Shown here: one piece after another, positions 7,814 to 44,777 of the stretch | Position numbering within the stretch: the stretch's first letter is position 1 | Layout: each line of letters begins with the position of its first letter | Source of the DNA: Candidatus Moraniibacteriota bacterium | GTDB lineage: Bacteria > Patescibacteriota > Minisyncoccia > Moranbacterales > UBA1568 | Reading direction: 5' to 3' | Assembly: GCA_013334575.1 (NCBI GenBank) | Contig: JAAXXG010000002.1 | Location: 5,377-69,376, forward strand | Length of the DNA: 64,000 nt | The notes under the pieces: generated by a model | Told to the model about the DNA's origin: nothing | The model's input: the letters and a program-made list of their open reading frames with translations, nothing else | Databases searched by the model: none | Translations under genes and position numbers: made by a program

Positions 7814-8986
7814 TCATCGTATCACACGTTCGTCGTCGCCCGAAACGAACGACCTCAGCACCCGCTTTGCCGCATCATCCCATGAAAATTTCCGCGCCCT
7901 TTCCAGACCCCGAATCCGAAGCGTCTCGCGAAGCTTCCGGTCAAGCAAGACCGCCTCGAACGCCCGGAACAGCTCATCCGGACGATGAGGATCCACCAGG
8001 ATGCCGGCGTCGCCGACTATTTCCGGAAGCGACGAGACGTCGGACGTGACGACGGGCGTCCCACAGGCGAGCGCCTCGAGCGGCGGAAAGCCGAACCCCT
8101 CGTATACGGACGGATACGCGAACACCGATGCCAGATTATAGAACGCGGGCTTGTCCTCGTCCTCGATGAATCCGGGAAGAAGAATGTTTCCGCGGAACGG
8201 AGAGTGTTCCACGTCACGGAGGATTCCGTCCTCTTTCCACCCGGAAACGCCCGCGAGCACGAGCGCCGTCTTCTCAAGCTCCGGATGACGGGCCTTGCGG
8301 AGCGCGTCATACGCGCGGACGATCGCCGAGATGTTCTTCCTCGGTTCGAAGGCGCCGAGATACAGGATGAACGAATACGGAAGCCCGTATTTCTCCTTGA
8401 CGGCAAGCATCTTCGGGTCGTTCCGATTCCGTTCCCGAAACCGGACATCGATCCCGCTTCGAACCACTTCCACCTTCGCGGACGGTATGCCGTATCGGGC
8501 CACCAGATCGTCGCGCGTAGAGGACGAGACGGCGAAGATCCGATGTGCGCGACGGAACAGGGCTCGCGGATTCACGAAGAAATGCCACAACCGCTGCTTC
8601 CACGAGAAGGTCTCGGGACAGACCGAAAATGACAGGTCGTGTGCGGTCACGAACAGACGCGTCCGGGAAGACACCGCGCAGAAGTTCGGATTCGGCAGAA
8701 AATACGCATCGACCCCGCCGATCAATCGGTCGAGTTTCGGATACCGGAAGTACCAGAGCGAGAAATTCAGGAGCTTGTTCGGGATACGGAACCTCCGGAC
8801 GGACACGTTTCCGAAACCCTCAGCGAACGACATGTCCACCTGCCCGTTTCTCCACTCGTTCAGAAAGAGGACATACTCGTTGTCCTGATCCGAACGAAAA
8901 AGCGCCGAAAGGAGCAGCACCGTGTACTCCTCCACGCCGCTCTTCCGGCCGCTCGTCAGGCACCGTAGGTCGATTCCGATTCTCAT
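7814..8986 (-). CDS. Glycosyltransferase family 4 (GT-B, group 1)
   Basis: The ATG at 8986 gives [21 protein letters not shown]. The C-terminus carries the EX7E-type motif [21 protein letters not shown]. The ORF track extends to 9130 but that N-terminal extension is Arg-rich and unlikely to be real. Confidence 0.8.
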
Positions 8987-9134
8987 ATCCCCGTTTGCGG
9001 CACCCTCCGGAACCGGCTCATGGCTGAAGTACCGCAATAATAGCATCAACCGAAGACGAAAATCAAAAACACGCCCTGAAAAGGCGTGAGAATAAAGGAA
9101 GGCTGCACGATCGTACAGCCTCCTGTCCATCGGG

Positions 9135-31984: not shown

Positions 31985-32212
31985 CATCGGTCGGTATTCT
32001 TTATACTTTCAAACGAAACGTGTAACATAATAATGCGGTCGTCGGATTATGTCGCGCGGCTTTTGAAAGGAGCTCGTCCGCCTTGTCCAACAGACATGGA
32101 CAGTCCGACGACTTTGACACTCCGCTCGGTCAATAACGTATCGGCGCGAACCGAAAAAGGCGCCGGCCCCTTTTCCTGACTCCAGGCCGGATGAGCGCCG
32201 TATCACGATATA

Positions 32213-32241
32213 TTGACATCACATAGAATGCATGCTATATT
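32213..32241 (+). promoter_or_regulatory. Sigma70-type promoter TTGACA-17-TATATT
   Basis: Read directly. It lies 60 nt upstream of the lipoprotein ATG. Confidence 0.5.
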
Positions 32242-32300
32242 AATGTGTTTTGAAGCTTAACAGTTTGCAAACCAGGGCAATAGCCCGCTTCGGAGACATC

Positions 32301-32678
32301 ATGGACAGACCTACCGTTACGCTCGCTATCTGCCTCGCGTTATCATGCACGGCAGCACAACCTACCTCGCAGCAGGTACTCGCTGCCACGGTCATGAAGA
32401 CATCGCCGGCAGTATCGATAAGATTCTACGACATCGAAAGGGTGCGCCCGGTCCAGCTTTCGCCGATGATTTCGGCTACGGCGTCCTGGCCGATGGGAAC
32501 GGAAAGACAAACCGCGATAAAAACGGCGAGGCTTCGCATCCAGGAGGAGTTTAGGAAACTCCCTCTCTACGCCAAAGGATACCGCATCGAGAGTATCCAG
32601 GCTGATGACGGATTTCCCGATTTCCCGTCACAGCGGTTCTACGTCATCCTCCAGTTGACCGGGCCCGGGATCCATTGA
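32301..32678 (+). CDS. Putative lipoprotein (125 aa)
   Basis: The SD GGAG lies 6 nt before the ATG. The signal peptide has a lipobox-like ALSC. Confidence 0.5.
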   Translation: MDRPTVTLAICLALSCTAAQPTSQQVLAATVMKTSPAVSIRFYDIERVRPVQLSPMISATASWPMGTERQTAIKTARLRIQEEFRKLPLYAKGYRIESIQADDGFPDFPSQRFYVILQLTGPGIH

Positions 32679-32697
32679 CTCTCCCATCCGAATTTAT

Positions 32698-32736
32698 CAA
32701 AGCCGCACGGCAACGTGTGGCTTTGTAATTTTTTAG
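32698..32736 (+). terminator. Rho-independent terminator
   Basis: The stem CAAAGCCGCAC / GTGTGGCTTTG has one G.U, followed by TAATTTTTT. Confidence 0.6.
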
Positions 32737-32946
32737 CGGTACCGAACCGCGTTCGTCGCAGTCTGTCATGATCGAAACCAAATCCACCCTCAACCACCGC
32801 GCGCTTCAGCACGTAGAATCCCCGACGACTAGGTTCGTATAGCTGGTAATTTATATCTTCATTGCCGTGGTAATTTACACGGATACCCGCCAGATTCTCA
32901 TCCTCTTCAGATTTTGATGTTGCATGGGAAAAGAACGAGATTCTCA

Positions 32947-32985
32947 CAAAAAGGACTCGTATTACGGGTCCTTATTAATATTTTC
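32947..32985. terminator. Bidirectional terminator downstream of the Nudix gene
   Basis: The stem AAGGACTCG / CGGGTCCTT is flanked by an A-run and a T-run. Confidence 0.5.
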
Positions 32986-33076
32986 TCGTTTCTTCTCGAG
33001 TGCTCGGAAGCGTCATCACGAAGCAAAAAATCCCCGCTTTCTTCGGCCTCGTATTACGGCGCGGATCCGAATGACT

Positions 33077-33559
33077 TCAAAGCGAATTCAAAGCACCATG
33101 GATATCCGCCGCGAGGTCCCCGATATCCTCCTCCCGTATCGAGGTGATCTCGGACCAGCGTGGCGTTTCGGACTCGAGATCGTCCACAAGGTCGTCGCCT
33201 TTGAGTTTTTCCGAACGCACAGCGCATCGGAAAAAGAAAAGAAACGCGTGATAGGCCTCGTCGAGCGGGTCATAGTAGAAGAAGTTCTCCCGACAGAGGA
33301 CCAGTTCCCCGATCTCGACCTCGAGCCCCGTTTCCTCGCGGATCTCCCTCCTCAGGGCGTCTTCCATCCTTTCCCCGACTTCCACGCCGCCGCCCGGAAA
33401 CCACAGCTTGCCGTTCCCCTTGTTCCGCATCGTGACGACGCGGCCTCCGCTGACGATGAATCCGTAGACGCTCGGCCGGAAGAAGAACTTGTCACGCGGA
33501 ACCGGGACGATTTCCCCGCGACTGTTCTTACAGGATATCTGATTCATAGGAATGACCAT
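33077..33559 (-). CDS. Nudix hydrolase
   Basis: The Nudix box is GGGVEVGERMEDALRREIREETGLEVE. Confidence 0.8.
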   Translation of the reverse strand: MVIPMNQISCKNSRGEIVPVPRDKFFFRPSVYGFIVSGGRVVTMRNKGNGKLWFPGGGVEVGERMEDALRREIREETGLEVEIGELVLCRENFFYYDPLDEAYHAFLFFFRCAVRSEKLKGDDLVDDLESETPRWSEITSIREEDIGDLAADIHGALNSL

Positions 33560-33655
33560 TCACGCTATTTATATCAGATGGGGTTTGACGGCAACCCCGC
33601 TTCATAACTGGCGTTCATGCGTCCAAGGATATACTCGCGCACCGGGAAAAATGCT

Positions 33656-34192
33656 TCATGCCTGTTTCGATTTCGTCCGTTCCCCTACTGACCACGGGTG
33701 CAAATCTTCGTAGATGGCATCCTGATAATTATGGGGCTTGAGACGAAGAATCGCTTCGGCTATCGGCATGCAGTGCCGCTCGATCTCGCCGGTGTTTCCG
33801 GTTTTTGTATAGTGTTCGAAACTGTCTATCGTATCCGCCGTCTTGACGATCAGCGCGTCCTCGCCCACTTCAGCGCATCGTCGGACCATATCGTCTATCC
33901 GCTCACGTGAATCCTCTATGGTTCGGTCCTTCGAATTCGCTTGTACGATACGGAGCACGTCCTCTCCGAATCCGTCTCGCAGCGCCTCCTCGGACATATC
34001 CGACCATTCCAAGGCATCATGCAGCAATCCCGCGAGTACGATATTCCGTGAATACCCCTTCCCATACAGGAATACGCCGACCCGGATATCGTGAAACAGG
34101 ATCGGCTTCCGCGACCCCTCTTCCGATACCGGCATACGCTCTGCCAGTGCCCGTACCGCCCGCTCGAATTCGACATCTATCGAGGCATTCAT
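33656..34192 (-). CDS. HD-domain phosphohydrolase
   Basis: The H...HD...D pattern is present (GLLHDALEW). Confidence 0.7.
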   Translation of the reverse strand: MNASIDVEFERAVRALAERMPVSEEGSRKPILFHDIRVGVFLYGKGYSRNIVLAGLLHDALEWSDMSEEALRDGFGEDVLRIVQANSKDRTIEDSRERIDDMVRRCAEVGEDALIVKTADTIDSFEHYTKTGNTGEIERHCMPIAEAILRLKPHNYQDAIYEDLHPWSVGERTKSKQA

Positions 34193-34220
34193 AGTATTCG
34201 AATTTATAACTCAACCTTCT

Positions 34221-34292
34221 TTAAAGTGTCACGCCGAGGAACCAAAGGGTGAAGTCGAGCATCTTGGTGTCGGAGAGCTTCCCGACATTCAT
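34221..34292 (-). CDS. Repeat-family R1 copy A: conserved 23-aa ORF MNVGKLSDTKMLDFTLWFLGVTL, 29 nt upstream of the HD gene
   Basis: Nucleotide conservation with copies at 35988-36049 and 38038-38106, plus two decayed copies. The ATG is preceded by conserved GATATTCCCGGA. Confidence 0.35.
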   Translation of the reverse strand: MNVGKLSDTKMLDFTLWFLGVTL

Positions 34293-34506
34293 GCATCCGG
34301 GAATATCAGCGGGTTTCCGCATCGCACCAAACTCCATATATCCTGCTTCGTACATGTTTAATGCAAATGAGATGTATCGACTACCAATTTGCGATTCATT
34401 CTTCGAACAATTTTTAGATAGACCGTATGGCGCTAATTCCTTCCGAAATAAACTCATCTATCAATAGTATTATTATATACCATCTCATCAAGGGGAAGGT
34501 TTGCTT

Positions 34507-34539
34507 GAAAAAAGCAGGAGCACCGTTTGGAACTCCTGC
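34507..34539 (-). terminator. Terminator of the PRTase gene
   Basis: The stem GCAGGAG / CTCCTGC is followed by a T6 run on the minus strand. Confidence 0.5.
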
Positions 34540-34578
34540 ATTTCATGTAGAAACGAATAATCGAACGGAGGTCGTTGT

Positions 34579-35259
34579 TTACCTGGACGCGTCCACGCTT
34601 ACGCGACCAAGCGCCTGCAAGACCTCGTTATCACGGGTATCTTCGAAAGAATCGTAGAACATGCCGGTAGGAAAGTAATCACTTCTTGATCGGCGGCACG
34701 ATACTACCCTGTGCCCGTTGATAATATCGGGAAACCAATTCAAAATGGCCGGAATACCGATGACGATCTGCGATGCTCCGGCATACTCCATCGCATTAAT
34801 TGCGGCGATAATCGAGCGTCCCGTCACGGCACCATCGTCGATGAGCATCACCCGCTTTCCGATAACATCCTCGGGAATCATTCCGCCGAATATGGCGTGC
34901 TGGGAGGCGACGTTTTTGCGGCAATTTAGCACGATTGGATTTGCCAGAGACGCATCTTCCGCATCCCGAAAGAATGTTTCCGGTTCGAACGCACCGGTTT
35001 TCCATACCGTAGCGGTGCCGAAGCCAGTCAGAAATACGGCAACTTCACCGCCCTCAATTTCCTGCGACGGAATCCGGCAATCGTCGACTGAGAAGGAATA
35101 CAACGGCACATCAAGGAGACTCGCTACCTCTTTCGCGACGACGATTCCTCCACGAGCGAGTCCTACGACAATCGTATTTGTCGTCTCGGACGCTTCTCCG
35201 GCGGCGACAATACTGCTTGCCAATTGTCGCCCAGCATCAGTGCGGTTTTCGAAAATCAT
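34579..35259 (-). CDS. Type I phosphoribosyltransferase-family protein (COG1926-like)
   Basis: The PRPP-binding motif is VMLIDDGAVTGRS. The N-terminus is MIFENRTDAGRQLA. Confidence 0.7.
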   Translation of the reverse strand: MIFENRTDAGRQLASSIVAAGEASETTNTIVVGLARGGIVVAKEVASLLDVPLYSFSVDDCRIPSQEIEGGEVAVFLTGFGTATVWKTGAFEPETFFRDAEDASLANPIVLNCRKNVASQHAIFGGMIPEDVIGKRVMLIDDGAVTGRSIIAAINAMEYAGASQIVIGIPAILNWFPDIINGHRVVSCRRSRSDYFPTGMFYDSFEDTRDNEVLQALGRVSVDASR

Positions 35260-35367
35260 GGATATGTTGGTTTTGTTAGAAAAATGTTTAAGGCGTCGAC
35301 CGTTCGTCGACGCCTTGTTGAGACTTGATCCTACCGAGGCCGCGCAGGATTATCAGCAGTAGGAGTA

Positions 35368-35655
35368 TCAGCAGTAGGAGACGTGCTCTGACGCGGCATG
35401 ATTCCTGAGATCATCGAGGTCGATGCCGAAGTCGGCGGAGAGATTTTCGGCGCCCGCCGCAAGCGAGGAGTCGGCGATGACGATGGCGAGCAGCTGAATG
35501 CCAGGCATCTTGTGCGGCTCGGCATTCCCGCCCAGCAGCTTTGCCTTGATGATCTTGTCGGCGTGCATGATAGCTTCTTCCATGATGTCAGCCTCTTCCA
35601 TTTGCGCCTCTTTGATGGCGTCGCGCATGCCGCAGTGATTGATCGCATGACCCAT
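35368..35655 (-). CDS. Hypothetical protein (95 aa)
   Basis: The ATG at 35655 has SD GGGGGA 5 nt upstream. Sequence: MGHAINHCGMRDAIKEAQMEEADIM... I recognise no confident domain. Confidence 0.4.
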   Translation of the reverse strand: MGHAINHCGMRDAIKEAQMEEADIMEEAIMHADKIIKAKLLGGNAEPHKMPGIQLLAIVIADSSLAAGAENLSADFGIDLDDLRNHAASEHVSYC

Positions 35656-35848
35656 AGTATCCCCCGTTGTTTTGTGGTGATTATTGTTGTTGTAGTATAC
35701 GATCGTCACCAGATGATCGCATTCCTCATGAGCAGATTTTTCTCATCAGTCCTGGGGAATGCAATCATCGGCGTGCGCAGGCGGTGCCATACATCGAATC
35801 GGAAAGTTATTAAATGACTGAACATATTAGCAAATATAAACGACTCTG

Positions 35849-36049
35849 TCAAGAATTATATTTATATAGTCGATAATTAGGCTTATTTTTAACGTTTTTC
35901 TTAAACTTGGCCAAAGTTATGACTATTTCCAACGGGTATAAATACAGTATCGCAACGGCCTTATAGATCAAAAATCGTGGTACCATCGCGCCCAATGACC
36001 AGAGAGCAAAGTCAAGCATCTTGGTGCCGAAAAACCTCTCGACGTTCAT
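35849..36049 (-). CDS. Repeat-family R1 copy B, extended to 66 aa (MNVERFFGTKMLDFALWSLGAMV...)
   Basis: Same conserved element as above. Here there is no stop after codon 23, so the ORF continues into an AT-rich hydrophobic tail. Confidence 0.3.
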   Translation of the reverse strand: MNVERFFGTKMLDFALWSLGAMVPRFLIYKAVAILYLYPLEIVITLAKFKKNVKNKPNYRLYKYNS

Positions 36050-36079
36050 GTACTAAAAATATCATCGTGAATCGGAAAA

Positions 36080-36179
36080 GGTACCTGACCCCTTTTCTGG
36101 CTCATCAAATCAACTGGCGCGTACCGGCATAAACACATCGGGTCTTTTCTAGCTTGAGCCAGAAAAGAGGTCAGGCGCC
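36080..36179. repeat. Inverted pair of R2 repeats (GGTACCTGACCCCTTTTCTGGCTCA ... TGAGCCAGAAAAGAGGTCAGGCGCC), 24-25-bp arms about 50 nt apart
   Basis: Read directly. Related single copies lie at 38972-39005 and 39563-39589. Confidence 0.5.
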
Positions 36180-36338
36180 ATTTGAGAGTCTTCCCCTCCT
36201 CCGAAGAAGGTCAATTCCAGACCGAGAGCAGAAGCCATTCGTATGATCTACTCGTTTTCTCCGAACGGCGTCCCGCGATTCACATTTTCGAACCGTGTCT
36301 ATCAGTTTTCACTTGAAAAAAAATACCTAATCCACTTT

Positions 36339-37415
36339 CTAACTTGTTTGCTGGCACTTAAAATCGTTCTTTATCATATATTCCGATCCATCGCCATCCT
36401 TTTCTATATGCTTATCTGGATTGCGAAAAATGTCGATCATCGTTCTAATGAACCTCTCTTTCACTTCCTTGTGGATCTCGATCATTCTACGGACTTGAGC
36501 TTCATCCAAGGCGTCCATTATTTTATCGTCAATTCCGAATATTTCTTTTCCATAATCCTCCGAAAGGGCAAAATTCATTCCCTTTTCCACTTTCCTTGCA
36601 ATTTGATAGACGTATGTTTTCAAGCGGTCGTCTTCTTCGATCAATTTCGAAAGGACGATATCCCTGAAAGAAAACGTGTAGACATCCCCTTCGCCAAGGA
36701 TTTTTTCCGCCCGCGTCACGTCTTCCGTCGACAACTTCCCTTTCGTCGTATCAGACAGCAGCCCCGACCCCAATGGAGCCGAAAAATACATCCCCCCATA
36801 TTTTGCCGAAAAATCTTCGCCGAAGAGATCTTTAACTATCTCACGATTAATCAAATAGTATGCCTTATTAGGGGGGAGCAGTTTTTTGGAAAACAAATCC
36901 CTCCCTTCTCCTGCACCATCACTCCCTTTGCGGTCGTGATCGAGCATCTTCGACAAAGAGTCCTTATCCAGCACCTCCTGATCGACAATCTCATACAACA
37001 GTCGACCGGTCCTGCCATTGCCGTCGGAAAACGGATGAATCGCCTGAATACTATAGTAGAGTAACGTCGCTCTATCTTCATTGTCGCGCAAATTTTTCAA
37101 GGCATCAAAGGCTTCTTTCATCAGCGTATCCTTTTGTTCCGGATATGGAGGCAGATATGCCACGCCTTGAATACCGTAGGAAAGTTCAGTATTTGCTCCG
37201 TCGATACCCCTCCTATTTGTCGGCAATTCCCTGATGATTCCGTTGAGTCTTGAAACGAAATTCTTAAAATCGTCATATGACACATCGAAGATCCATTCGT
37301 CGAACTTTTCCTCCGAGCGCTTCATTTCAGAGAATCCGGATTTTTCTAAAAAATTGAAGACCATTTCTCCGGTATTCATCCTTTCCGCATTCCCTTGCAT
37401 CATTTCCAACGACAT
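36339..37415 (-). CDS. fic: Fic/DOC-family protein (AMPylator-type fold)
   Basis: The canonical Fic motif HPFSDGNGRTGR is present. Size is 358 aa with low GC. Confidence 0.85.
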   Translation of the reverse strand: MSLEMMQGNAERMNTGEMVFNFLEKSGFSEMKRSEEKFDEWIFDVSYDDFKNFVSRLNGIIRELPTNRRGIDGANTELSYGIQGVAYLPPYPEQKDTLMKEAFDALKNLRDNEDRATLLYYSIQAIHPFSDGNGRTGRLLYEIVDQEVLDKDSLSKMLDHDRKGSDGAGEGRDLFSKKLLPPNKAYYLINREIVKDLFGEDFSAKYGGMYFSAPLGSGLLSDTTKGKLSTEDVTRAEKILGEGDVYTFSFRDIVLSKLIEEDDRLKTYVYQIARKVEKGMNFALSEDYGKEIFGIDDKIMDALDEAQVRRMIEIHKEVKERFIRTMIDIFRNPDKHIEKDGDGSEYMIKNDFKCQQTS

Positions 37416-37514
37416 AGGCTTGTCTTAATCCGGACGAAACGAACGCGAATCAAAAAAGTGCCTTACGACTATTCTGGCTCCGATTTTTCCAAAAACTGCA
37501 CCAAGAGACGGAGC

Positions 37515-37555
37515 CGGACATCTTGGCATCGGAACACTTCGCGGCGTTCGACTCT
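37515..37555 (-). repeat. Decayed R1 copy (no ATG) between Nudix and Fic
   Basis: GAGAGTCGAACGCCGCGAAGTGTTCCGATGCCAAGATG aligns at about 75% to the R1 core. Confidence 0.4.
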
Positions 37556-37984
37556 CTATGACGATAGAGCTCTTGCGATACGAGCCGCTTTTCCCACGGC
37601 GGTTCGGAAGTTGTCGTTAAGCCAATGGATGTCGGCAAGGCTGTCGGATCCGACCCACCGCGCCTCCGCGTGTTCGTCGCTCATGTGAATAGTATCCTCT
37701 TCAACGGCGCGGCAGAGATAGAATACGGTATATTTCGGAGGATCCTCGATGCCCCAGCGGGCCGCATGAACCGGCGTGACGATATCGATATCGAGGCCGG
37801 TTTCCTCCTTTACTTCGCGTCGAAGCCCCTCTTCCGGTTCGTCTTCCGCTTCGAGCCTTCCACCGGGAAGCATCCACATCTCCGTCGTGAATTCCTCGTT
37901 CAGCGGCAACCGAAGGATCAGTAACTCGCCCCGTTCGTTCATGATGACTCCGTATTCCCCGACATTACACGTCAATCTCGACAT
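37556..37984 (-). CDS. Nudix hydrolase (second copy)
   Basis: The Nudix box is GGRLEAEDEPEEGLRREVKEETGLDIDI. The start is ATG 37984 (MSRL) or 37942 (MNERG, better SD). The ORF track's 38059 start overlaps R1 copy C. Confidence 0.75.
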   Translation of the reverse strand: MSRLTCNVGEYGVIMNERGELLILRLPLNEEFTTEMWMLPGGRLEAEDEPEEGLRREVKEETGLDIDIVTPVHAARWGIEDPPKYTVFYLCRAVEEDTIHMSDEHAEARWVGSDSLADIHWLNDNFRTAVGKAARIARALSS

Positions 37985-38034
37985 ACTGCTTTTCGATTTC
38001 CATATCAGATCGCAAACGATGAATTTATTATACC

Positions 38035-38106
38035 TCACATGATCGCGCCGAGGGACCACAGGGCAAAATCGAGCATCTTGGTGTCGGAGAACTTCTCGAC
38101 GTTCAT
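38035..38106 (-). CDS. Repeat-family R1 copy C: MNVEKFSDTKMLDFALWSLGAIM
   Basis: It has the same conserved upstream box GATATTCCCGGACAC-ATG and lies 50-90 nt upstream of the second Nudix gene. Confidence 0.35.
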   Translation of the reverse strand: MNVEKFSDTKMLDFALWSLGAIM

Positions 38107-38162
38107 GTGTCCGGGAATATCATTTCGTACAAAAAATTGCCTAGCCTTTTTCGACTTCACAT

Positions 38163-38194
38163 AAAAACCCGTCACGGCTTATCGCCATGACGGG
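38163..38194 (-). terminator. Terminator of the ITPase gene
   Basis: The stem CCCGTCA / TGACGGG has a nested GGC/GCC and a T5 run on the minus strand. Confidence 0.55.
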
Positions 38195-38225
38195 AACCGA
38201 TTTCTTGTCCAAGAAAACTACCGAA

Positions 38226-38765
38226 TCAGAATCCTCGCAGGAAGGCTTCGTAAAACACCTGTTTAAGCCCCTCCGTCAGGATCTTCCGCCTGGAAACCCT
38301 GCAGCCGGACATCACGATATGCGGATCGGTAGGATCTCCGCCGAAGCGCTCGGAAAATACCGACCCGACGGTCGTTGTCCCGAAGCCGCGCTCCTCGGCT
38401 TCCGCGACGCATGCGTCGGGAAATCGCATCCCTTCGGATATCGAAACGTATTCTCTCCCGTCCGGCAACAGCAGAACGATGATAGCGACATCGATTGGAA
38501 ATCGCCTGCCGTCAGCTCCCCCGAATCGGACGATTCCGTTCTCGATACCTATTCCGATGACGTCAGACCCGGTCGCCGCAGCCCCCTTCGCCCGGTTCGA
38601 TGCGCCACGATAGATTTCCTCCAGGCCTTCCGGCTGCGCGTTTACCAATGACGGGATATCCTTGCCCGACACGTCAGCCAGTATCCCCATACTGACGCAG
38701 ACCGCCGAAACCGGACCGACCTTGTGTTCGCTTTCCGAGCCGACAACGATATGTTTTCGTTGCAT
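38226..38765 (-). CDS. YjjX/DUF84-family inosine/xanthosine triphosphatase-like protein
   Basis: VNAQPEGLEEIYRGASNRAKGA aligns by eye to the YjjX [22 protein letters not shown] region, and the C-terminus is similar. Confidence 0.6.
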   Translation of the reverse strand: MQRKHIVVGSESEHKVGPVSAVCVSMGILADVSGKDIPSLVNAQPEGLEEIYRGASNRAKGAAATGSDVIGIGIENGIVRFGGADGRRFPIDVAIIVLLLPDGREYVSISEGMRFPDACVAEAEERGFGTTTVGSVFSERFGGDPTDPHIVMSGCRVSRRKILTEGLKQVFYEAFLRGF

Positions 38766-38924
38766 ATTTCGTTTCTCCTGTTAAGTTTCGAAAATCATCT
38801 CTGTTTTGTAGCAGAGACGTTACGAAACGTCAAGATTCCACAAGGTTTCGACGTCTTCGGTCATCCGACCGATACACGACTCCGTTCGCGCTTCCTTGCA
38901 TAGGACGGGATCCGCCTGCTCCCT

Positions 38925-39005
38925 AGCCCATGACCGAGGACGTTCACGCCTCCGAGAATATCATCGTGAATTGAAAAGGCACCTGACTTCTTTTTCGGCT
39001 CTGGC
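38925..39005 (-). repeat. Decayed R1 copy (ATG->GTG, diverges after 7 codons) abutting an R2 copy (GGCACCTGACTTCTTTTTCGGCTCTGGC)
   Basis: Read directly. The R2 copy ends at the stop codon of the P-loop gene. Confidence 0.4.
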
Positions 39006-39524
39006 TTATAATATACCGGCTCTGATGAGGGCATCTTCCAAGTATTCGCCCGGTTGCATGATAATTTTTTCGTTTGGTTGGTTTACGAAATCCTCGAAAT
39101 CGCTCTGAATGTTCGTCTCGATTCTTTTGACAAATTCTTCATTCGCGCCTCTTTCTCTTGCCCGTTCAATATACTCCTCCTTGCACGTCGGGTCCGGATA
39201 CGCCAACACAAATTCTATGCCATAGTCTCGCATTTCCGAGAAAGGCATACATGGTGCTATGAGAACAATGTCATATATTCCGTTTTTCACTTCTTTAAGA
39301 ATCGCATCGTAATAATTGTTCGGCCAAGCGGGATTGATCTCCCTTTTTGTCGATTTCAGGCTTTCCTTGTTCACGACGGCCTTTTGTTCCTCAGTCAGGA
39401 TATACTTGTAGTCGCCGCTCGGTAGCTCGATTATATTATTATATTTCTTCGTCAAATACGTTTTTCCCGCACAAATCCACGCGCTAATTACGAGTGTTTC
39501 CTTTTTCGTCGATCCATTTTTCAT
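39006..39524 (-). CDS. Hypothetical P-loop NTPase / small kinase-like protein
   Basis: The Walker-A-like motif is ISAWICAGKTY. Size is 172 aa with low GC. Confidence 0.4.
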   Translation of the reverse strand: MKNGSTKKETLVISAWICAGKTYLTKKYNNIIELPSGDYKYILTEEQKAVVNKESLKSTKREINPAWPNNYYDAILKEVKNGIYDIVLIAPCMPFSEMRDYGIEFVLAYPDPTCKEEYIERARERGANEEFVKRIETNIQSDFEDFVNQPNEKIIMQPGEYLEDALIRAGIL

Positions 39525-39562
39525 AAATGTAATAATTGGATATTGAATCTGGAACGCAACTA

Positions 39563-39589
39563 AAAAAGTACCTGACCCTTTTTCTTGCT
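39563..39589 (-). repeat. R2 repeat copy (AAAAAAGTACCTGACCCTTTTTCTTGC)
   Basis: It sits directly 3' of the HNH-like gene stop. Confidence 0.4.
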
Positions 39590-39591
39590 TC

Positions 39592-40362
39592 TTATTTTAC
39601 TTTTTGTAGTGTTTGTTTTTCTCTTAAGCTTTCGCCAATTTTTTTAATAATACTTAACTCAGCGGAATCGTCTAGATCTCCGGATACCATATATAATCTT
39701 GGCATCATTCCAAGAAGTAATCTCTGAAAAGTGCTTGGGGCCTGTAGCTTATCCACTTTTATGTAAACAACGTACCCGCTTCCAAAGTATATCTGGTAAA
39801 ATCGTACTCCATCGATTCTAATTGGTCGTGGATCTAATAGGATTTCCCTAGCAAATTTATTTTTTTCGATGTCGAACTTCCTTATGAAAATAGTGAATGA
39901 TTGATTAGAATCCTCGACGTTATTATCAATCATATCCTTTAGTACTGTTTGATATGGACCCAGCACAACATGTTGATAAAATATATTCTCAGATATATCT
40001 GCTCGAAAAAGGACGGAGCAAAAGAACATTTTTAGTTTTACAAAATCAACTTCTTGCTCAAATACCCATCCAACCGGGTAGGCTCCGCCTTCTTCAAAGA
40101 TTGCTCTAAAGCTAGATTGATTTTGTAACAATATCTTTTGTCCATAATCATCAAGGGGCTTAAACTTTTCTTCGCAGGACAAACACAAAATCTCCTGATC
40201 ATAGATACCTATTCTGCTCTTTTTTGTATGTTCATCCTTATTGCTTGATACAACTAAAAGATGGTCACTTTCCTTTTTTATGGCTCGGAAAAAACTCTCA
40301 GGAATTACATGAGATTTGACTAATTTTTCAAATTCTCGACTACACATCTTGCAAGTCTTCAT
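39592..40362 (-). CDS. Putative HNH/His-Me-finger endonuclease-like protein
   Basis: The ATG at 40362 gives MKTCKMCSREFEKLVKSHVIPESFF... A second CxxC pair (CLSCEEKF) follows. It is very AT-rich, and the assignment is tentative. The ORF track's 301-aa version overlaps the dnaK 3' end. Confidence 0.35.
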   Translation of the reverse strand: MKTCKMCSREFEKLVKSHVIPESFFRAIKKESDHLLVVSSNKDEHTKKSRIGIYDQEILCLSCEEKFKPLDDYGQKILLQNQSSFRAIFEEGGAYPVGWVFEQEVDFVKLKMFFCSVLFRADISENIFYQHVVLGPYQTVLKDMIDNNVEDSNQSFTIFIRKFDIEKNKFAREILLDPRPIRIDGVRFYQIYFGSGYVVYIKVDKLQAPSTFQRLLLGMMPRLYMVSGDLDDSAELSIIKKIGESLREKQTLQKVK

Positions 40363-42525: not shown

Positions 42526-42552
42526 TTAGCACTCGTCAAGTTCGAGTGCTAA
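42526..42552. promoter_or_regulatory. CIRCE operator (TTAGCACTC-N9-GAGTGCTAA) overlapping a TTGACG-17-TATACT promoter for dnaK
   Basis: The inverted repeat is a perfect match to the consensus. On the minus strand the -35 lies inside CIRCE and the -10 is at 42511-42516. Confidence 0.85.
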
Positions 42553-42937: not shown

Positions 42938-43828
42938 CTAGGCGACGCTCACCTTCGCCGCCGCGATCACCTTGTCCCCCATCATGTAGCCCTTGCGATG
43001 CACAGTGGTGATCTTCTGTACGTTTCCTTCCCTGACCTCCCCGTCCGTACCGATCGCCTCGTGCCGGGACGGATCGAAGTCGTCACCGACCTTCGGCTCA
43101 ATGAGCGCAACGCCGTTCTGCGAGAGCACGTCCTCGAACTGCTTCGCTATGTAGCCGATACCGGTCACCCACGGGCTGTCCTTGGCCTCTTCCGGGACAT
43201 GTGCGGCCGCCGCATGGAAGTTGTCGAGTACCGGTATCAAATCAAGCACGAGCCGCTCCACCTTGTACGCGCCCATCTCGGCACCCTCGGCATCGCGTCG
43301 TTTGCGGTAGTTCTCGAAATCCGCCAGGCACCGCTTCCAGCCGGACAAGGCGTCGCGATTCTCCAGATGCTCCTTCGCAAGGAGGACGGTTCGCCGCTTG
43401 TCGGCCTCGTAGCCCTTGTCTTCGAAGGTCTCCGCGGCCTCGTCGAGCGTCATCCACTCGAAGCCGTCATGTTCGGCCGGGTCGGTCTTCACCCCGGCAT
43501 CGTGGGTAAAGGCGACGAAGCGGAGGGCTTGGAGCGCGTCGCCCTCATCACTCGTGAGATGGCGGAAGAACGGAAGCGGCACAATATCACGGACGGCAAG
43601 TCCGGTCTCTTCCCTTACTTCGCGGACGATCGTCTCTTCCGGCGTCTCGTCCGCATCCACGTGTCCGCCGGGAAGGTCGCGCTTGCCCGATCCGCGCCGA
43701 TCACCCTTAGCCCGCGTCAGGACGAGGACGCGCCCGTCCGGACCGATGACGGCGGCCTTGACCGTGATGCGGAAGATCCCGTCCGTCGGCTTCCCGTCCG
43801 TCATTTCGTGCGTTTTCTTTCCGGTCAT
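42938..43828 (-). CDS. grpE: GrpE nucleotide-exchange factor whose N-terminal region is a Nudix hydrolase domain
   Basis: Residues about 30-150 carry the Nudix box GGHVDADETPEETIVREVREETGL. Residues about 150-296 are GrpE (WKRCLADFENYRKRRDAE...KITTVHRKGYMMGDKVIAAAKVSVA). It reads as a single continuous frame. Confidence 0.8.
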   Translation of the reverse strand: MTGKKTHEMTDGKPTDGIFRITVKAAVIGPDGRVLVLTRAKGDRRGSGKRDLPGGHVDADETPEETIVREVREETGLAVRDIVPLPFFRHLTSDEGDALQALRFVAFTHDAGVKTDPAEHDGFEWMTLDEAAETFEDKGYEADKRRTVLLAKEHLENRDALSGWKRCLADFENYRKRRDAEGAEMGAYKVERLVLDLIPVLDNFHAAAAHVPEEAKDSPWVTGIGYIAKQFEDVLSQNGVALIEPKVGDDFDPSRHEAIGTDGEVREGNVQKITTVHRKGYMMGDKVIAAAKVSVA

Positions 43829-43854: not shown

Positions 43855-43924
43855 GTCATTCCCGCGAAGGCGGGAATCCTGGCGAAAAAGAGAGGGTCAA
43901 GATTCCCGCCTTCGCGGGAATGAC
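43855..43924. repeat. Inverted pair of dRS3-like repeats GTCATTCCCGCGAAGGCGGGAATC ... GATTCCCGCCTTCGCGGGAATGAC
   Basis: Read directly in the hrcA-grpE intergenic. The plus-strand translation gives the familiar ...PAFAGMT... repeat-derived peptide. Confidence 0.6.
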
Positions 43925-44750: not shown

Positions 44751-44777
44751 TTAGCACTCGTCAAGAAAGAGTGCTAA
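44751..44777. promoter_or_regulatory. Second CIRCE operator overlapping the TTGACG-18-TATACT promoter for hrcA
   Basis: TTAGCACTC-GTCAAGAAA-GAGTGCTAA is a perfect match. The -10 is at 44735-44740 on the minus strand. Confidence 0.85.

Follow-up and report, generated by a model that had tools for sequence, protein, structure and literature searches.

REPs (repetitive extragenic palindromes) are short sequences that readily form hairpins, and REPINs join two inverted REPs across a short spacer into one long hairpin that is replicated as a unit. REP and REPIN elements are the Y1-transposase counterpart of MITEs. Y1 transposases of the IS200/IS605 type employ two same-strand hairpins as left and right ends. 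The attC sites of integrons are imperfect palindromes of 57-141 nt with the architecture R''/L''-L'/R' and a GTTRRRY core. Among REPs, the GTAG- and CGTC-tagged superfamilies carry an unpaired tetranucleotide at one end of the palindrome (PMC3733652), and Y---NP is the class-2 RAYT signature (PMC6006769). REP/RAYT systems are a known kind of element; the lineage considered here is little studied.

We describe a repeat family, R2, in a window of 64 kb (the whole stretch of DNA that was analysed). It is likely that R2 comprises REP elements of the RAYT/TnpA-REP family of tyrosine (HUH-Y1) transposases, and that the local transposase has decayed to a stub.

The R2 family in the dnaK island

The island is a low-GC, hypervariable accessory region of a Candidatus Moranbacteria genome, immediately 3' of dnaK, and its genes are all on the minus strand. 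Its main features are as follows.

32143-32184, minus strand: marginal R2 member (repeat search; leave-one-out E=0.027)
33077-33559, minus strand: NUDIX gene (Pfam search; comparison with locus L123)
34217-34318: full R1 copy (repeat search)
35973-36076, minus strand: R1 repeat, small ORF MNVERFFGTKMLDFALWSLGAM…, directly after R2
36064-36105, minus strand: best R2/REP copy (nhmmer E=4e-11, leave-one-out 4e-8)
36153-36194, plus strand: inverted R2/REP copy, 3 mismatches (nhmmer, leave-one-out, repeat search, folding)
about 36298-36171, minus strand: what is left of the 3' end of a RAYT (Y1 transposase) gene, ~40 codons interrupted by a single in-frame stop and a single frameshift
36310-36347, minus strand: half of a degenerate REP (…GGATTAGGTATTTTTTTT), of doubtful status, which overlaps the stop of fic (E=5e-4 with this copy included in the model)
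36339-37415, minus strand: Fic-domain gene (Pfam Fic, 4.6e-12), directly 5' of the RAYT remnant
37442-37483, minus strand: R2/REP copy whose flanks are kept and whose 21-mer has 5 mismatches (leave-one-out E=3e-3)
38031-38134: full R1 copy (repeat search)
38963-39004, minus strand: R2/REP copy, with its start 11 nt past the stop of the P-loop gene and a degenerate R1 behind it
39006-39524, minus strand: P-loop (Walker-A-like) gene, 172 aa, R2 on both sides, no Pfam match
39551-39592, minus strand: R2/REP copy, starting 8 nt past the HNH-like ORF stop and 39 nt before the P-loop start codon
39592-40350, minus strand: ORF labelled HNH-like, 252 aa from the ATG at 40350, no Pfam match, R2 abutting its stop

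A sequence-only reading of this DNA had named four R2 copies; all four are present, and the repeat search groups them as one family. Beyond these we add a robust copy at 37442-37483, a marginal one at 32143-32184, and a doubtful one at 36310-36347. In leave-one-out nhmmer searches the R2 model regains all five robust copies (E = 4e-8 to 3e-3), and the best match outside the family has E >= 0.17. At 32143-32184 the flanks match (GAGTCAGGAAAAGGGG…CCTTTTTCGGTTCGCG) and the core is swapped for GCCGGCG, a GC-rich palindrome. The doubtful half is missed by leave-one-out nhmmer; by alignment it is homologous to 'AAGTACCATTTTT', just 5' of a RAYT remnant in L129, a Ca. Moranbacteria contig, and it may be the former 5' REP of the RAYT.

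The total of five to seven copies lies inside 7.5 kb (32.1-39.6 kb), in the low-GC island around the RAYT remnant. The R2 model finds no copy across the other ~56 kb of the window, so that within these 64 kb the repeat strongly prefers the island and is not the ubiquitous element without island preference that would have refuted the sequence-only reading. Every copy in the window is intergenic. All single copies in the island lie on the coding (minus) strand, and since all island genes are on that strand, R2 lies right behind stop codons. The coding-strand sequence of R2 is GAGCCAGAAAAGGGGTCAGGTACCTTTTCC, and the element starts 8-11 nt past the stops of the HNH-like and P-loop genes, in keeping with its proposed place on the 3' side of genes.

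The core of R2 is the 21-mer AAAAGGGGTCAGGYACCTTTT. The best copy carries AAAAGGGGTCAGGTACCTTTT, with no mismatch to the metagenome consensus; mismatches across the window copies are 0, 2, 3, 3, 5, and 5, as against 0-1 beside most intact RAYTs. Possible pairing within the 21-mer joins A1-4 to T18-21, G5-6 to C16-17, and G8 to Y14. Only position 14 varies, between C (50%) and T (49%), either of which can pair with G8. The resulting hairpin of a single copy is weak, with 6-7 A/T-rich base pairs. The most conserved section is the 'loop', GGTCAGGYA, which suggests sequence-specific recognition more than a role for a stem. Across 224 unique instances, the flanks of the 21-mer hold no conserved tetranucleotide, and thus no GTAG or CGTC foot; their only bias is towards purines at -2/-1 and pyrimidines at +22/+23.

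The small repeat R1 had been placed 5' of genes in a unit layout of R1, gene, and R2. This layout does not hold. R2 and then R1 share a single junction at three places (36105->35973, 39004->38939, and weakly 38157->38031), and the order is reversed once (37551->37442), where the R2 copy at 37442-37483 has an R1 remnant on one side and the start codon of fic on the other. The R1 start codon is 27 nt past the best R2 copy. About half of the island genes are without R2, including NTPase, PRTase, HD, NUDIX33, and orf95.

The RAYT family adjoining the 21-mer

An observation beyond the reach of the sequence-only reading is that the 21-nt core appears as the REP of a very large RAYT family. Scans with the R2 pattern matched a Ca. 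Moranbacteria MAG, where a P-loop homologue accompanies R2, and a Planctomycetaceae MAG with two inverted doublets; the core pattern occurs as singles, tandems, and inverted doublets in at least 120 metagenome contigs of 30-77% GC. In 11 motif-seeded loci, the motif adjoins a ~226-aa ORF that ends KPRGRPKKGT*, with the stop inside an inverted motif. This protein matches Pfam Y1_Tnp (PF01797) at 6e-20. Its top NCBIfam match is REP_Tyr_transpos at 72.3 bits, below the cut-off of 80 and so a close match, not an equivalog. Family proteins carry the HUH motif as HWH or HFH and Y---NP as RYVERNP (RY[VI]ERNP). The family holds at least 7,945 cluster representatives, some of which NCBI labels 'REP-associated tyrosine transposase [Patescibacteria group bacterium]'.

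An independent test used five RAYT loci picked by protein alone (L123-L127). The 21-mer adjoins the transposase gene in each of the five. It lies 5' of the start in all four loci with upstream sequence (three of these at a distance of 27-40 nt) and covers the stop codon in four of five; extra copies number 0-1 per 20 kb, against ~0 in shuffles. Two motif-seeded loci (L043, L045) have the motif on both sides of the RAYT likewise. The inverted 3' copy overlies the RAYT stop and partly encodes the C-terminal …GRPKKGT*. Judged from these sequences, flanking of a Y1 transposase gene by the 21-mer is the REP/RAYT arrangement, and the family, as assigned by sequence, is widespread in Patescibacteria (CPR) and also present in high-GC Planctomycetota-like contigs. 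Copy number in CPR relatives looks low, with 2-3 per 20 kb around the RAYT; relatives carry 2-5 per 20 kb, each of them either at the RAYT or within the dnaK island. Single copies in motif-seeded loci show no general orientation bias relative to genes, so the uniform orientation in the window is local, and the REP reading covers it only through inference.

The 64-kb window holds no intact RAYT, only the stub, and any present activity therefore requires a copy elsewhere in the genome. The remnant is the sole six-frame match of two RAYT HMMs across the whole window. Its peptide, NVNRGTPFGENE*IIRMASALGLE / DLLRRRGRLSNGA*, was joined by eye across one stop and one frameshift, and in this stitched form reaches 21.7 bits, whereas the best of 20,000 shuffles gave 7.3 and 5.3 bits; split at stops, the pieces are each insignificant alone. 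The remnant DNA is 76% identical to L129 6716-6837 (blastn E=2e-15), a segment that matches RAYT residues 195-226 (tblastn E=1e-6). L129 thus carries the same RAYT remnant with inverted REP as the window. Of two gene-level parallels, one is L125, where a Fic gene is followed by an intact RAYT; the other is the window NUDIX gene (33077-33559), with 67% aa identity to the L123 NUDIX, 650 nt 3' of an intact RAYT.

These data recast the inverted pair, which had been described as TIR-like arms of a small MITE-like insertion. The pair is present about 50 nt apart, with arms longer than first described (36069-36104 and 36155-36190; 36 nt, 81% complementary). The region 36060-36200 folds at -55 kcal/mol (z=-4.1), and a hairpin of 22 bp or more is possible. 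No direct repeat of >=4 nt, that is, no target-site duplication, occurs at any plausible boundary over 22 x 22 combinations. The inverted R2 encloses the pseudo-stop TGA of the remnant (36173-36171, minus). This arm of the pair is the decayed RAYT gene's 3' REP and not an insertion terminus. The part of the claim that invoked a mobile-element system stands, in REP/RAYT form, and the TIR/TSD type of MITE does not. This is the only R2 doublet in the window, and its arms come from different modules: we infer a dead RAYT's 3' REP beside the next forward REP, with a REPIN-like long hairpin possible.

Shuffled blocks and a proposed origin of the copies

Comparison of the same locus in relatives, as the sequence-only reading had proposed, places the R2 edges at the limits of shuffled blocks. 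The P-loop gene is the best example of an R2-bounded block: in four genomes it has R2 or its left half on both sides, with differing neighbors. In the four-way alignment of this locus, homology blocks start and stop at R2 edges, and R2 therefore marks shuffling boundaries. The 38963-39004 copy is kept at the equivalent place in L002, L128, and L129. L128 keeps the 39551-39592 copy too, there after an unrelated gene; L129 and L002 share just its left half, GAGCCAGAAAA. The P-loop gene still has R2 behind it in these last two, while the sequence further 3' is different. In the L129 island downstream of dnaK, R2 follows the stops of RelA_SpoT, RidA, SNase, and P-loop genes, and the next 9 kb beyond the island hold no R2. 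Island content is completely different among genomes whose dnaK genes are 88-91% identical.

A history consistent with these features would begin with copies seeded from the RAYT locus through the strand-specific, single-strand cut-and-join chemistry of Y1 transposases; such chemistry would place all single copies on the same strand as the genes. Copies would persist only in short intergenic gaps right after stop codons and would have been decaying since the loss of the local RAYT. The dispersed same-strand REPs may now serve mainly as recombination breakpoints that reshuffle island genes.

A more active role is conceivable because Y1 ends are two same-strand hairpins: any gene between REPs of one orientation could leave as a single-stranded circle and integrate beside another REP. 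The array of gene, REP, gene, and REP downstream of dnaK would then be an integron-like system run by an HUH enzyme. The R2-flanked P-loop gene and its homology limits in four genomes, the four different L129 genes each immediately trailed by R2, the shared coding strand of the island's single REPs, the RAYT remnant within the island in two genomes, and the turnover of content despite similar dnaK genes all fit such mobilised cassettes. We nonetheless regard this as unlikely. The sole RAYT seen in the window is dead, about half of the island genes lack R2, and the intact-RAYT loci L123-L127 have no REP-bounded neighbor genes; no empty-site/filled-site pair, circle junction, or same cassette at two loci was found, and homologous or illegitimate recombination predicts short-repeat boundaries equally. 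Integron-type attC sites bounding promoterless cassettes, the recombination sites that had been proposed, would account for an array in which small accessory genes (NUDIX, Fic, P-loop) share one orientation and a lower GC content, several of them trailed by a repeat. However, the 40 window ORFs scanned with Pfam, including all that flank the island, contain no tyrosine recombinase or Phage_integrase, and the ~40-nt R2 is not a 57-141-nt imperfect palindrome, has no attC architecture or GTTRRRY/RYYYAAC core sites, and is linked to a Y1 transposase instead. We give this explanation next to no weight.

Two further readings assign R2 a role in expression. In one, R2 is an RNA element whose conserved stem-loop would end or stabilise the transcript of the gene upstream; its place on the coding strand 8-11 nt past stop codons fits this, an AAAAGG/CCTTTT stem is possible, copy 39555-39600 folds better than shuffles (z=-3.0), the inverted pair reaches -55 kcal/mol, and E. 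coli REPs reportedly influence transcription termination and mRNA stability (background in PMC3733652). That this is the primary role of R2 is improbable, as the fold of five out of six single copies does not surpass that of shuffles (z -0.35 to +1.4), conservation peaks in the 'loop', and Rfam gives no match; the terminator scan calls no R2 copy, yet it calls three clear terminators elsewhere in the island (40401-40371, 38194-38168, 35316-35290). A promoter or 5' leader of the downstream gene could explain why GTCAGG (GTAAGG in the fic copy) lies 51 nt from the start codon of both P-loop and fic and at nearly equal distances, 40, 40, and 38 nt, in three R1 cases, with downstream genes that have no obvious Shine-Dalgarno sequences. 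It is very improbable, given that the P-loop gene of L129 and L002 keeps its 3' R2 while what follows differs, that no R2 coincides with a minus-strand promoter in a σ70-type scan, and that copies at RAYT loci occur in both orientations, even over the stop codon. Taken by class, R2 is not an attC site, terminator, promoter, or classical MITE, as judged from searches of the window for integrase and core sites, terminators, σ70-type promoters, and TSDs, respectively.

R2 among known repeat systems

Under the REP reading, the island recalls several described systems to different degrees. Integron cassettes share the co-oriented small accessory genes, several with a related repeat behind, and content that varies among close relatives; the window differs in having no IntI, attI, attC architecture, or core sites, and its repeat belongs to an HUH transposase system. 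DDE-moved MITEs with TIR and TSD are likewise short and non-coding, and R2 has inverted arms at one place. Unlike them, R2 has no TSD and no DDE partner, and its arms are separate REP units. The R2-linked RAYT comes from the same enzyme superfamily as IS200/IS605 (PF01797), also without TSD, and the same-strand hairpin geometry of those elements fits co-oriented single R2 copies; in contrast to IS200/IS605, the R2 system is not organised as an IS: TnpB and multi-copy identical elements are absent, and the repeat occurs scattered apart from the gene.

REPINs (Bertels & Rainey 2011, PMC3116915) resemble the short-spacer inverted core doublets common in metagenome loci and the Planctomycetaceae MAG, the inverted doublets that flank the RAYT in L045, and the hairpin-capable window pair at 36064-36194. 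Most window copies are instead single and co-oriented, the sole doublet combines a dead RAYT's 3' REP with the next forward REP across a 50-nt spacer, and the window has no second identical doublet.

Among the systems compared are the REP and RAYT/TnpA-REP pairs, or 'REPtrons', of E. coli, Pseudomonas, and Stenotrophomonas (Nunvar 2010; Ton-Hoang/Messing 2012; Quentin 2018, PMC6006769). In departure from these, R2 in the window flanks only the 3' side of a gene remnant; the family has no GTAG or CGTC foot; its A/T-rich stem has just 6-7 bp around a 9-nt 'loop' that is highly conserved; the end of the transposase gene runs into the 3' REP, which supplies part of the coding sequence for the C-terminal …GRPKKGT*; the middle residue of HUH is W or F, W being absent from the list in PMC6006769; one 21-mer is kept across contigs of 30-77% GC; and copies near the gene are few, the transposase in the window being a stub. 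In common with REPtrons, R2 is a short, extragenic, imperfect palindrome that flanks a single Y1 HUH gene in inverted orientation, with additional copies in nearby intergenic regions, and the linked protein carries HUH and Y---NP, with some members named by NCBI as REP-associated tyrosine transposases.

The R2 repeats and their junctions

All four copies of R2, a repeat of about 40 nt with a 21-nt core, that the sequence-only reading had named are present in the window at the positions it gave, and a repeat search places them in one direct-repeat family with additional members. A profile made from the copies and searched over the 64 kb found seven members, all within 32,143-39,592; the best non-member had E = 0.45. 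Because a profile built from its own copies is circular, we ran a leave-one-out search in which every copy was omitted in turn. This recovered five copies with E from 4e-8 to 3e-3; the copy at 32143-32184 was marginal (leave-one-out E = 0.027), and a putative copy at 36310-36347 was not recovered. A 28-mer search with up to 3 mismatches allowed proved too stringent for these repeats and returned a single copy. The coding-strand sequence of R2 is GAGCCAGAAAAGGGGTCAGGTACCTTTTCC, and its REP (repetitive extragenic palindrome) 21-mer is AAAAGGGGTCAGGTACCTTTT. An R2/R1-like match at 8747-8964 was dismissed; it falls within a long ORF (7814-9130, minus).

Repeat and transposase features of the island downstream of dnaK
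39551-39592, 38963-39004, 37442-37483, 36064-36105: R2 copies recovered in the leave-one-out search
36153-36194: inverted R2 copy recovered in the same search
36069-36104 and 36155-36190: arms of the inverted R2 pair (36 nt, 81% complementary, 50 nt between; repeat search)
39524-39575 and 37415-37466: 51-nt spacing from R2 to the start codons of the P-loop and fic genes, respectively
38031-38134, 35973-36076, 34217-34318, minus: full copies of the second repeat, R1
38939-38975, 37500-37551, 33610-33643: R1 remnants
36385-36206 and 36352-36200, minus: matches to the two profiles of REP-associated tyrosine transposase (RAYT)

The island has a GC content of 38-53%, against 56-64% in its surroundings, and every gene in it is on the minus strand. 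The order (Pfam) is dnaK, an HNH-like ORF, a P-loop ORF, NTPase_I-T, NUDIX, Fic, a 95-aa ORF, a phosphoribosyltransferase, an HD-domain protein, and a second NUDIX. R2 begins 8-11 nt past the stop codons of the HNH-like and P-loop genes, so its original placement on the 3' side of genes was right. Counted from the G that opens GTCAGG (GTAAGG in the fic copy), the next start codon is exactly 51 nt away for both P-loop and fic, and neither gene has an obvious Shine-Dalgarno sequence.

R1 is a repeated unit of about 105 nt that codes for a 23-aa peptide, MNVEKFSDTKMLDFALWSLGAIM (66 aa in one copy); its substitutions do not clearly follow the pattern of a conserved protein. R1 and R2 share a junction, with R1 directly after R2 at three places and before it once, and the proposed layout of R1, gene, and R2 is not borne out. 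At three junctions R1 starts 27 nt past the R2 21-mer. R1 also occurs in two closely related Moranbacteria contigs, L129 (10846-10909) and L128 (10555-10589), and was not found in any of the 120 metagenome loci seeded by the motif. In L129 (3301-3375 and 10518-10600) and in the Candidatus Moranbacteria locus L002 (1970-2060), R2 is followed by another shared module, CAAAATACTRCATAGAGAATCTCACCGATACGAATGAATCGAAG… ("R3"), instead of R1; the junction repeats are therefore composite (R2+R1 or R2+R3).

Several readings of R2 were weighed against this arrangement. A conserved 3' stem-loop had been suggested, and it finds little support in folding: as RNA, 5 of the 6 single copies (z from -0.35 to +1.4) are no more stable than shuffled sequence, the copy at 39555-39600 reaches z = -3.0, and a strong hairpin forms only in the inverted pair (-55 kcal/mol, z = -4.1). 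Rfam, run on the whole window at the gathering threshold and on 31.5-40.5 kb at a permissive E-value, returned just two tRNAs and noise, with nothing at R2. A simple scan of the island minus strand called three good terminators (40401-40371, 38194-38168, and 35316-35290) and none at R2, and a simple scan called no promoter at R2; both regulatory readings were rejected. No target-site duplication flanks the inverted pair, against its earlier description as a MITE-like insertion, and that reading was likewise rejected. An integron does not fit, as R2 lacks attC architecture and Pfam finds no tyrosine recombinase in 40 window ORFs. The R2 pattern had no match in viral contigs.

The R2 core and a RAYT family in other genomes

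A degenerate R2 pattern scanned over one genome per species gave two matches. The first, L002, has a P-loop gene of 88% identity with R2 behind it, and its homology to the window stops just past …CCTTTTTCAA. The second, the Planctomycetaceae locus L001, has two inverted doublets of the core of roughly 80 nt each. The core AAAARRRGTCAGGYRCCTTTT occurs in at least 120 metagenome contigs with GC from 30 to 77%, as single copies, tandems, and inverted doublets. The orientation of single copies relative to genes follows no general rule in these motif-seeded loci, where ORF calls are crude and unreliable for high-GC contigs. Partial tandem half-units AAAAGGGGTCAG stand directly 5' of the full REP in L006, L028, L035, L074, and L111, for example TAAAAGGGGTCAGTAAAAGGGGTCAGGTACCTTTT; they may have been left by cutting and rejoining inside the REP.

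Several AT-rich loci encode an ORF of about 226 aa that ends in …KPRGRPKKGT*, with its stop codon inside an inverted motif, and homologues adjoin the motif in 11 motif-seeded loci. The protein matches Pfam Y1_Tnp (6e-20), and among NCBIfam models "REP-associated tyrosine transposase" fits best, with 72.3 bits, slightly short of the 80-bit cut-off. Its HUH motif takes the form HWH or HFH, and it also has Y---NP, the defining motif of class-2 TnpA-REP/RAYT proteins (PMC6006769). A comparison with PDB sequences gave nothing at E <= 0.01. The family comprises at least 7,945 cluster representatives; NCBI already annotates some members as REP-associated tyrosine transposases in Patescibacteria, Parcubacteria, or Yanofskybacteria.

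As an independent test, five loci (L123-L127) were selected on protein similarity alone. The motif lies shortly upstream of the RAYT start codon in all 4 loci with upstream sequence: 27-40 nt from the start with at most 1 mismatch in three, and 31 nt away with four mismatches in L126. An inverted copy covers the RAYT stop codon in 4 of the 5. Further copies number 0-1 per 20 kb, and shuffles give about zero. A motif upstream of the RAYT and an inverted copy over its stop is the arrangement of known REP/RAYT systems ("REPtrons"), which makes R2 a REP family belonging to a RAYT family.

A RAYT remnant and the island boundaries

No intact RAYT was found within the 64 kb. ORF fragments split at stop codons are too short and individually not significant against a RAYT profile; a whole-frame scan and a stitched peptide were used in their place. 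Two profiles, one from 10 locus proteins and one from 120 database homologues, each had a single match when all six frames of the window were searched, both on the minus strand. Read from 36298 to 36171 through one in-frame stop and one frameshift, the peptide NVNRGTPFGENE*IIRMASALGLE/DLLRRRGRLSNGA* aligns with RAYT …KRGRPFGEESWVKKIAKKLGLESTLKERGRPKK. Stitched by eye, it scores 21.7 bits with either profile, and the top of 20,000 shuffles reaches 7.3 bits (10-protein profile) and 5.3 bits (120-homologue profile). Comparison with L129 settles its assignment as a RAYT remnant: L129 6716-6837 has 76% DNA identity to window 36288-36168 (E = 2e-15) and matches RAYT residues 195-226 (E = 1e-6). Synteny agrees, with a Fic gene directly before an intact RAYT in L125, and in L123 a NUDIX just downstream of the RAYT that is 67% identical to window 33077-33559. 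The pseudo-stop (36173-36171) lies inside the inverted R2, with the geometry of intact genes. The pair that had been read as TIR-like is thus the 3' REP of a dead RAYT beside the next forward REP.

The window's P-loop protein is 100% identical to that of a "Candidatus Moranbacteria bacterium" MAG, and dnaK of L128 and L129 shares 88-91% DNA identity with the window's. The content of the hypervariable region downstream of dnaK differs entirely among the window (32-40.4 kb), L128 (6.8-16 kb; a HepT/NTP-transferase pair, SLFN_AlbA_2, and others), and L129 (2.2-16 kb; RelA_SpoT, PP2C, RidA, SNase, AAA_18, and others). R2 occurs in both of these islands. In L129 it directly follows the stop codons of the RelA_SpoT, RidA, SNase, and P-loop genes, and it is absent from 9 kb beyond the island. 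In the window, L002, L128, and L129 alike, the P-loop gene is followed by R2, and upstream it has R2 or the left half GAGCCAGAAAA in all 4, despite differing neighbours. In the four-way alignment, homology sets in with the left arm of the upstream R2 and switches class right past the downstream R2. Breakpoints after the A-run (GAGCCAGAAAA|) predict that the RAYT would cleave at that position; R2 edges therefore coincide with rearrangement boundaries.

The RAYT remnant lies within the island, R2 copies cluster around it, and breakpoints fall at REP edges. We propose that the copies would have spread from the RAYT locus through the single-strand chemistry of Y1 transposases, which is strand-specific and leaves no duplication. 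They would persist only in short spacers past stop codons and would have decayed ever since the loss of the local RAYT; those in the window differ from the 21-mer by 0, 2, 3, 3, 5, and 5 mismatches, and copies beside intact RAYTs by 0-1 in 4 of the 5 protein-seeded loci. They may now act mainly as recombination breakpoints. A bolder alternative makes the region a cassette array run by the HUH (RAYT) enzyme, not an integrase: genes between co-oriented REP hairpins would be excised and re-inserted beside other REPs as single-stranded units, with REPs as the "attC" of a CPR gene-shuffling system. If true, this would be a new way to build accessory-gene arrays in tiny-genome organisms. We think it improbable. 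The four-genome P-loop alignment supports that part of the earlier proposal in which R2 delimits shuffled units; as for active cassette movement, the analysis found neither an empty site nor a circle junction nor a duplicated cassette. L130, a contig of 36.5% GC, carries a P-loop homologue that is more distant (80% aa identity); after it, at 2018-2070, comes …ATAGAGCCAG|TTTTGC, which has the left flank of R2 and a T-run but lacks the REP core. This may be a site that has no REP or has had it excised, or the resemblance may be chance.

Other features lie near the island. Two CIRCE-type operators (TTAGCACTC-N9-GAGTGCTAA; 42526-42552 and 44751-44777), which precede the tRNA_bind/dnaK genes and hrcA, are ordinary HrcA heat-shock regulation. 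Between hrcA and grpE lies a different palindromic doublet (43855-43924; 27-nt arms, 96% complementary, GTCATTCCCGCGAAGGCGGGAATCCTG …), with GGATCCCGG…CCGGGATGAC units like it in L129 (6880-6960) and in the loci L066 and L122; it is possibly another REP-like family. GrpE carries an N-terminal NUDIX domain (42938-43828, minus; Pfam NUDIX 1e-20 and GrpE 2e-34), a fusion also found in L128 (2606-3955).

Comparison with known REP systems

A puzzling island repeat thereby gains a concrete identity as the REP partner of a RAYT transposase. To our knowledge, work on REP/RAYT systems has dealt almost exclusively with Proteobacteria and a small number of other cultured phyla; in the literature searched we found no paper linking REPs or RAYTs to CPR/Patescibacteria, and no mention of the core sequence strings. 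The main interest lies in the CPR context and the possible part of REPs in island shuffling. For those who work on REPINs (inverted REP doublets) and HUH enzymes, three features are relevant: the very large size of the RAYT family; a 21-nt REP that overlaps the stop codon and is near-invariant across very different genomes; and the concentration of Moranbacteria REPs in one hypervariable island, where they coincide with rearrangement boundaries.

REP/RAYT systems, with their REPtrons and REPINs, are the closest known relatives of R2 and its transposase. A point linked to the cassette alternative is that one such lineage, from Patescibacteria to Planctomycetota-like contigs, would keep an almost invariant 21-nt REP that partly encodes the RAYT C-terminus. 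In high-GC contigs (57-69%, one labelled Planctomycetaceae), the core forms doublets of about 70 nt with a conserved spacer GTGCGAAGCACCCTSCGGGCCGTTCCGGC (L001, L005, L010, L023, L061, L075, L086, L097, L099, L113, and L119); these REPIN-like doublets form a subfamily of their own, apart from the doublets with a short spacer (CCGCGGCGG) in contigs of 70-77% GC. Described REPs have a GTAG or CGTC foot (PMC3733652), which the R2 family lacks. It also differs in its A/T-rich 6-7-bp stem and highly conserved 9-nt centre, in a 3' REP that overlaps the transposase stop codon and the C-terminal …GRPKKGT, and in a 21-mer that is near-invariant over 30-77% GC, where position 14 alone varies (C or T, either compatible with pairing to G8). 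These differences are peculiarities at the level of the family, not a new kind of system.
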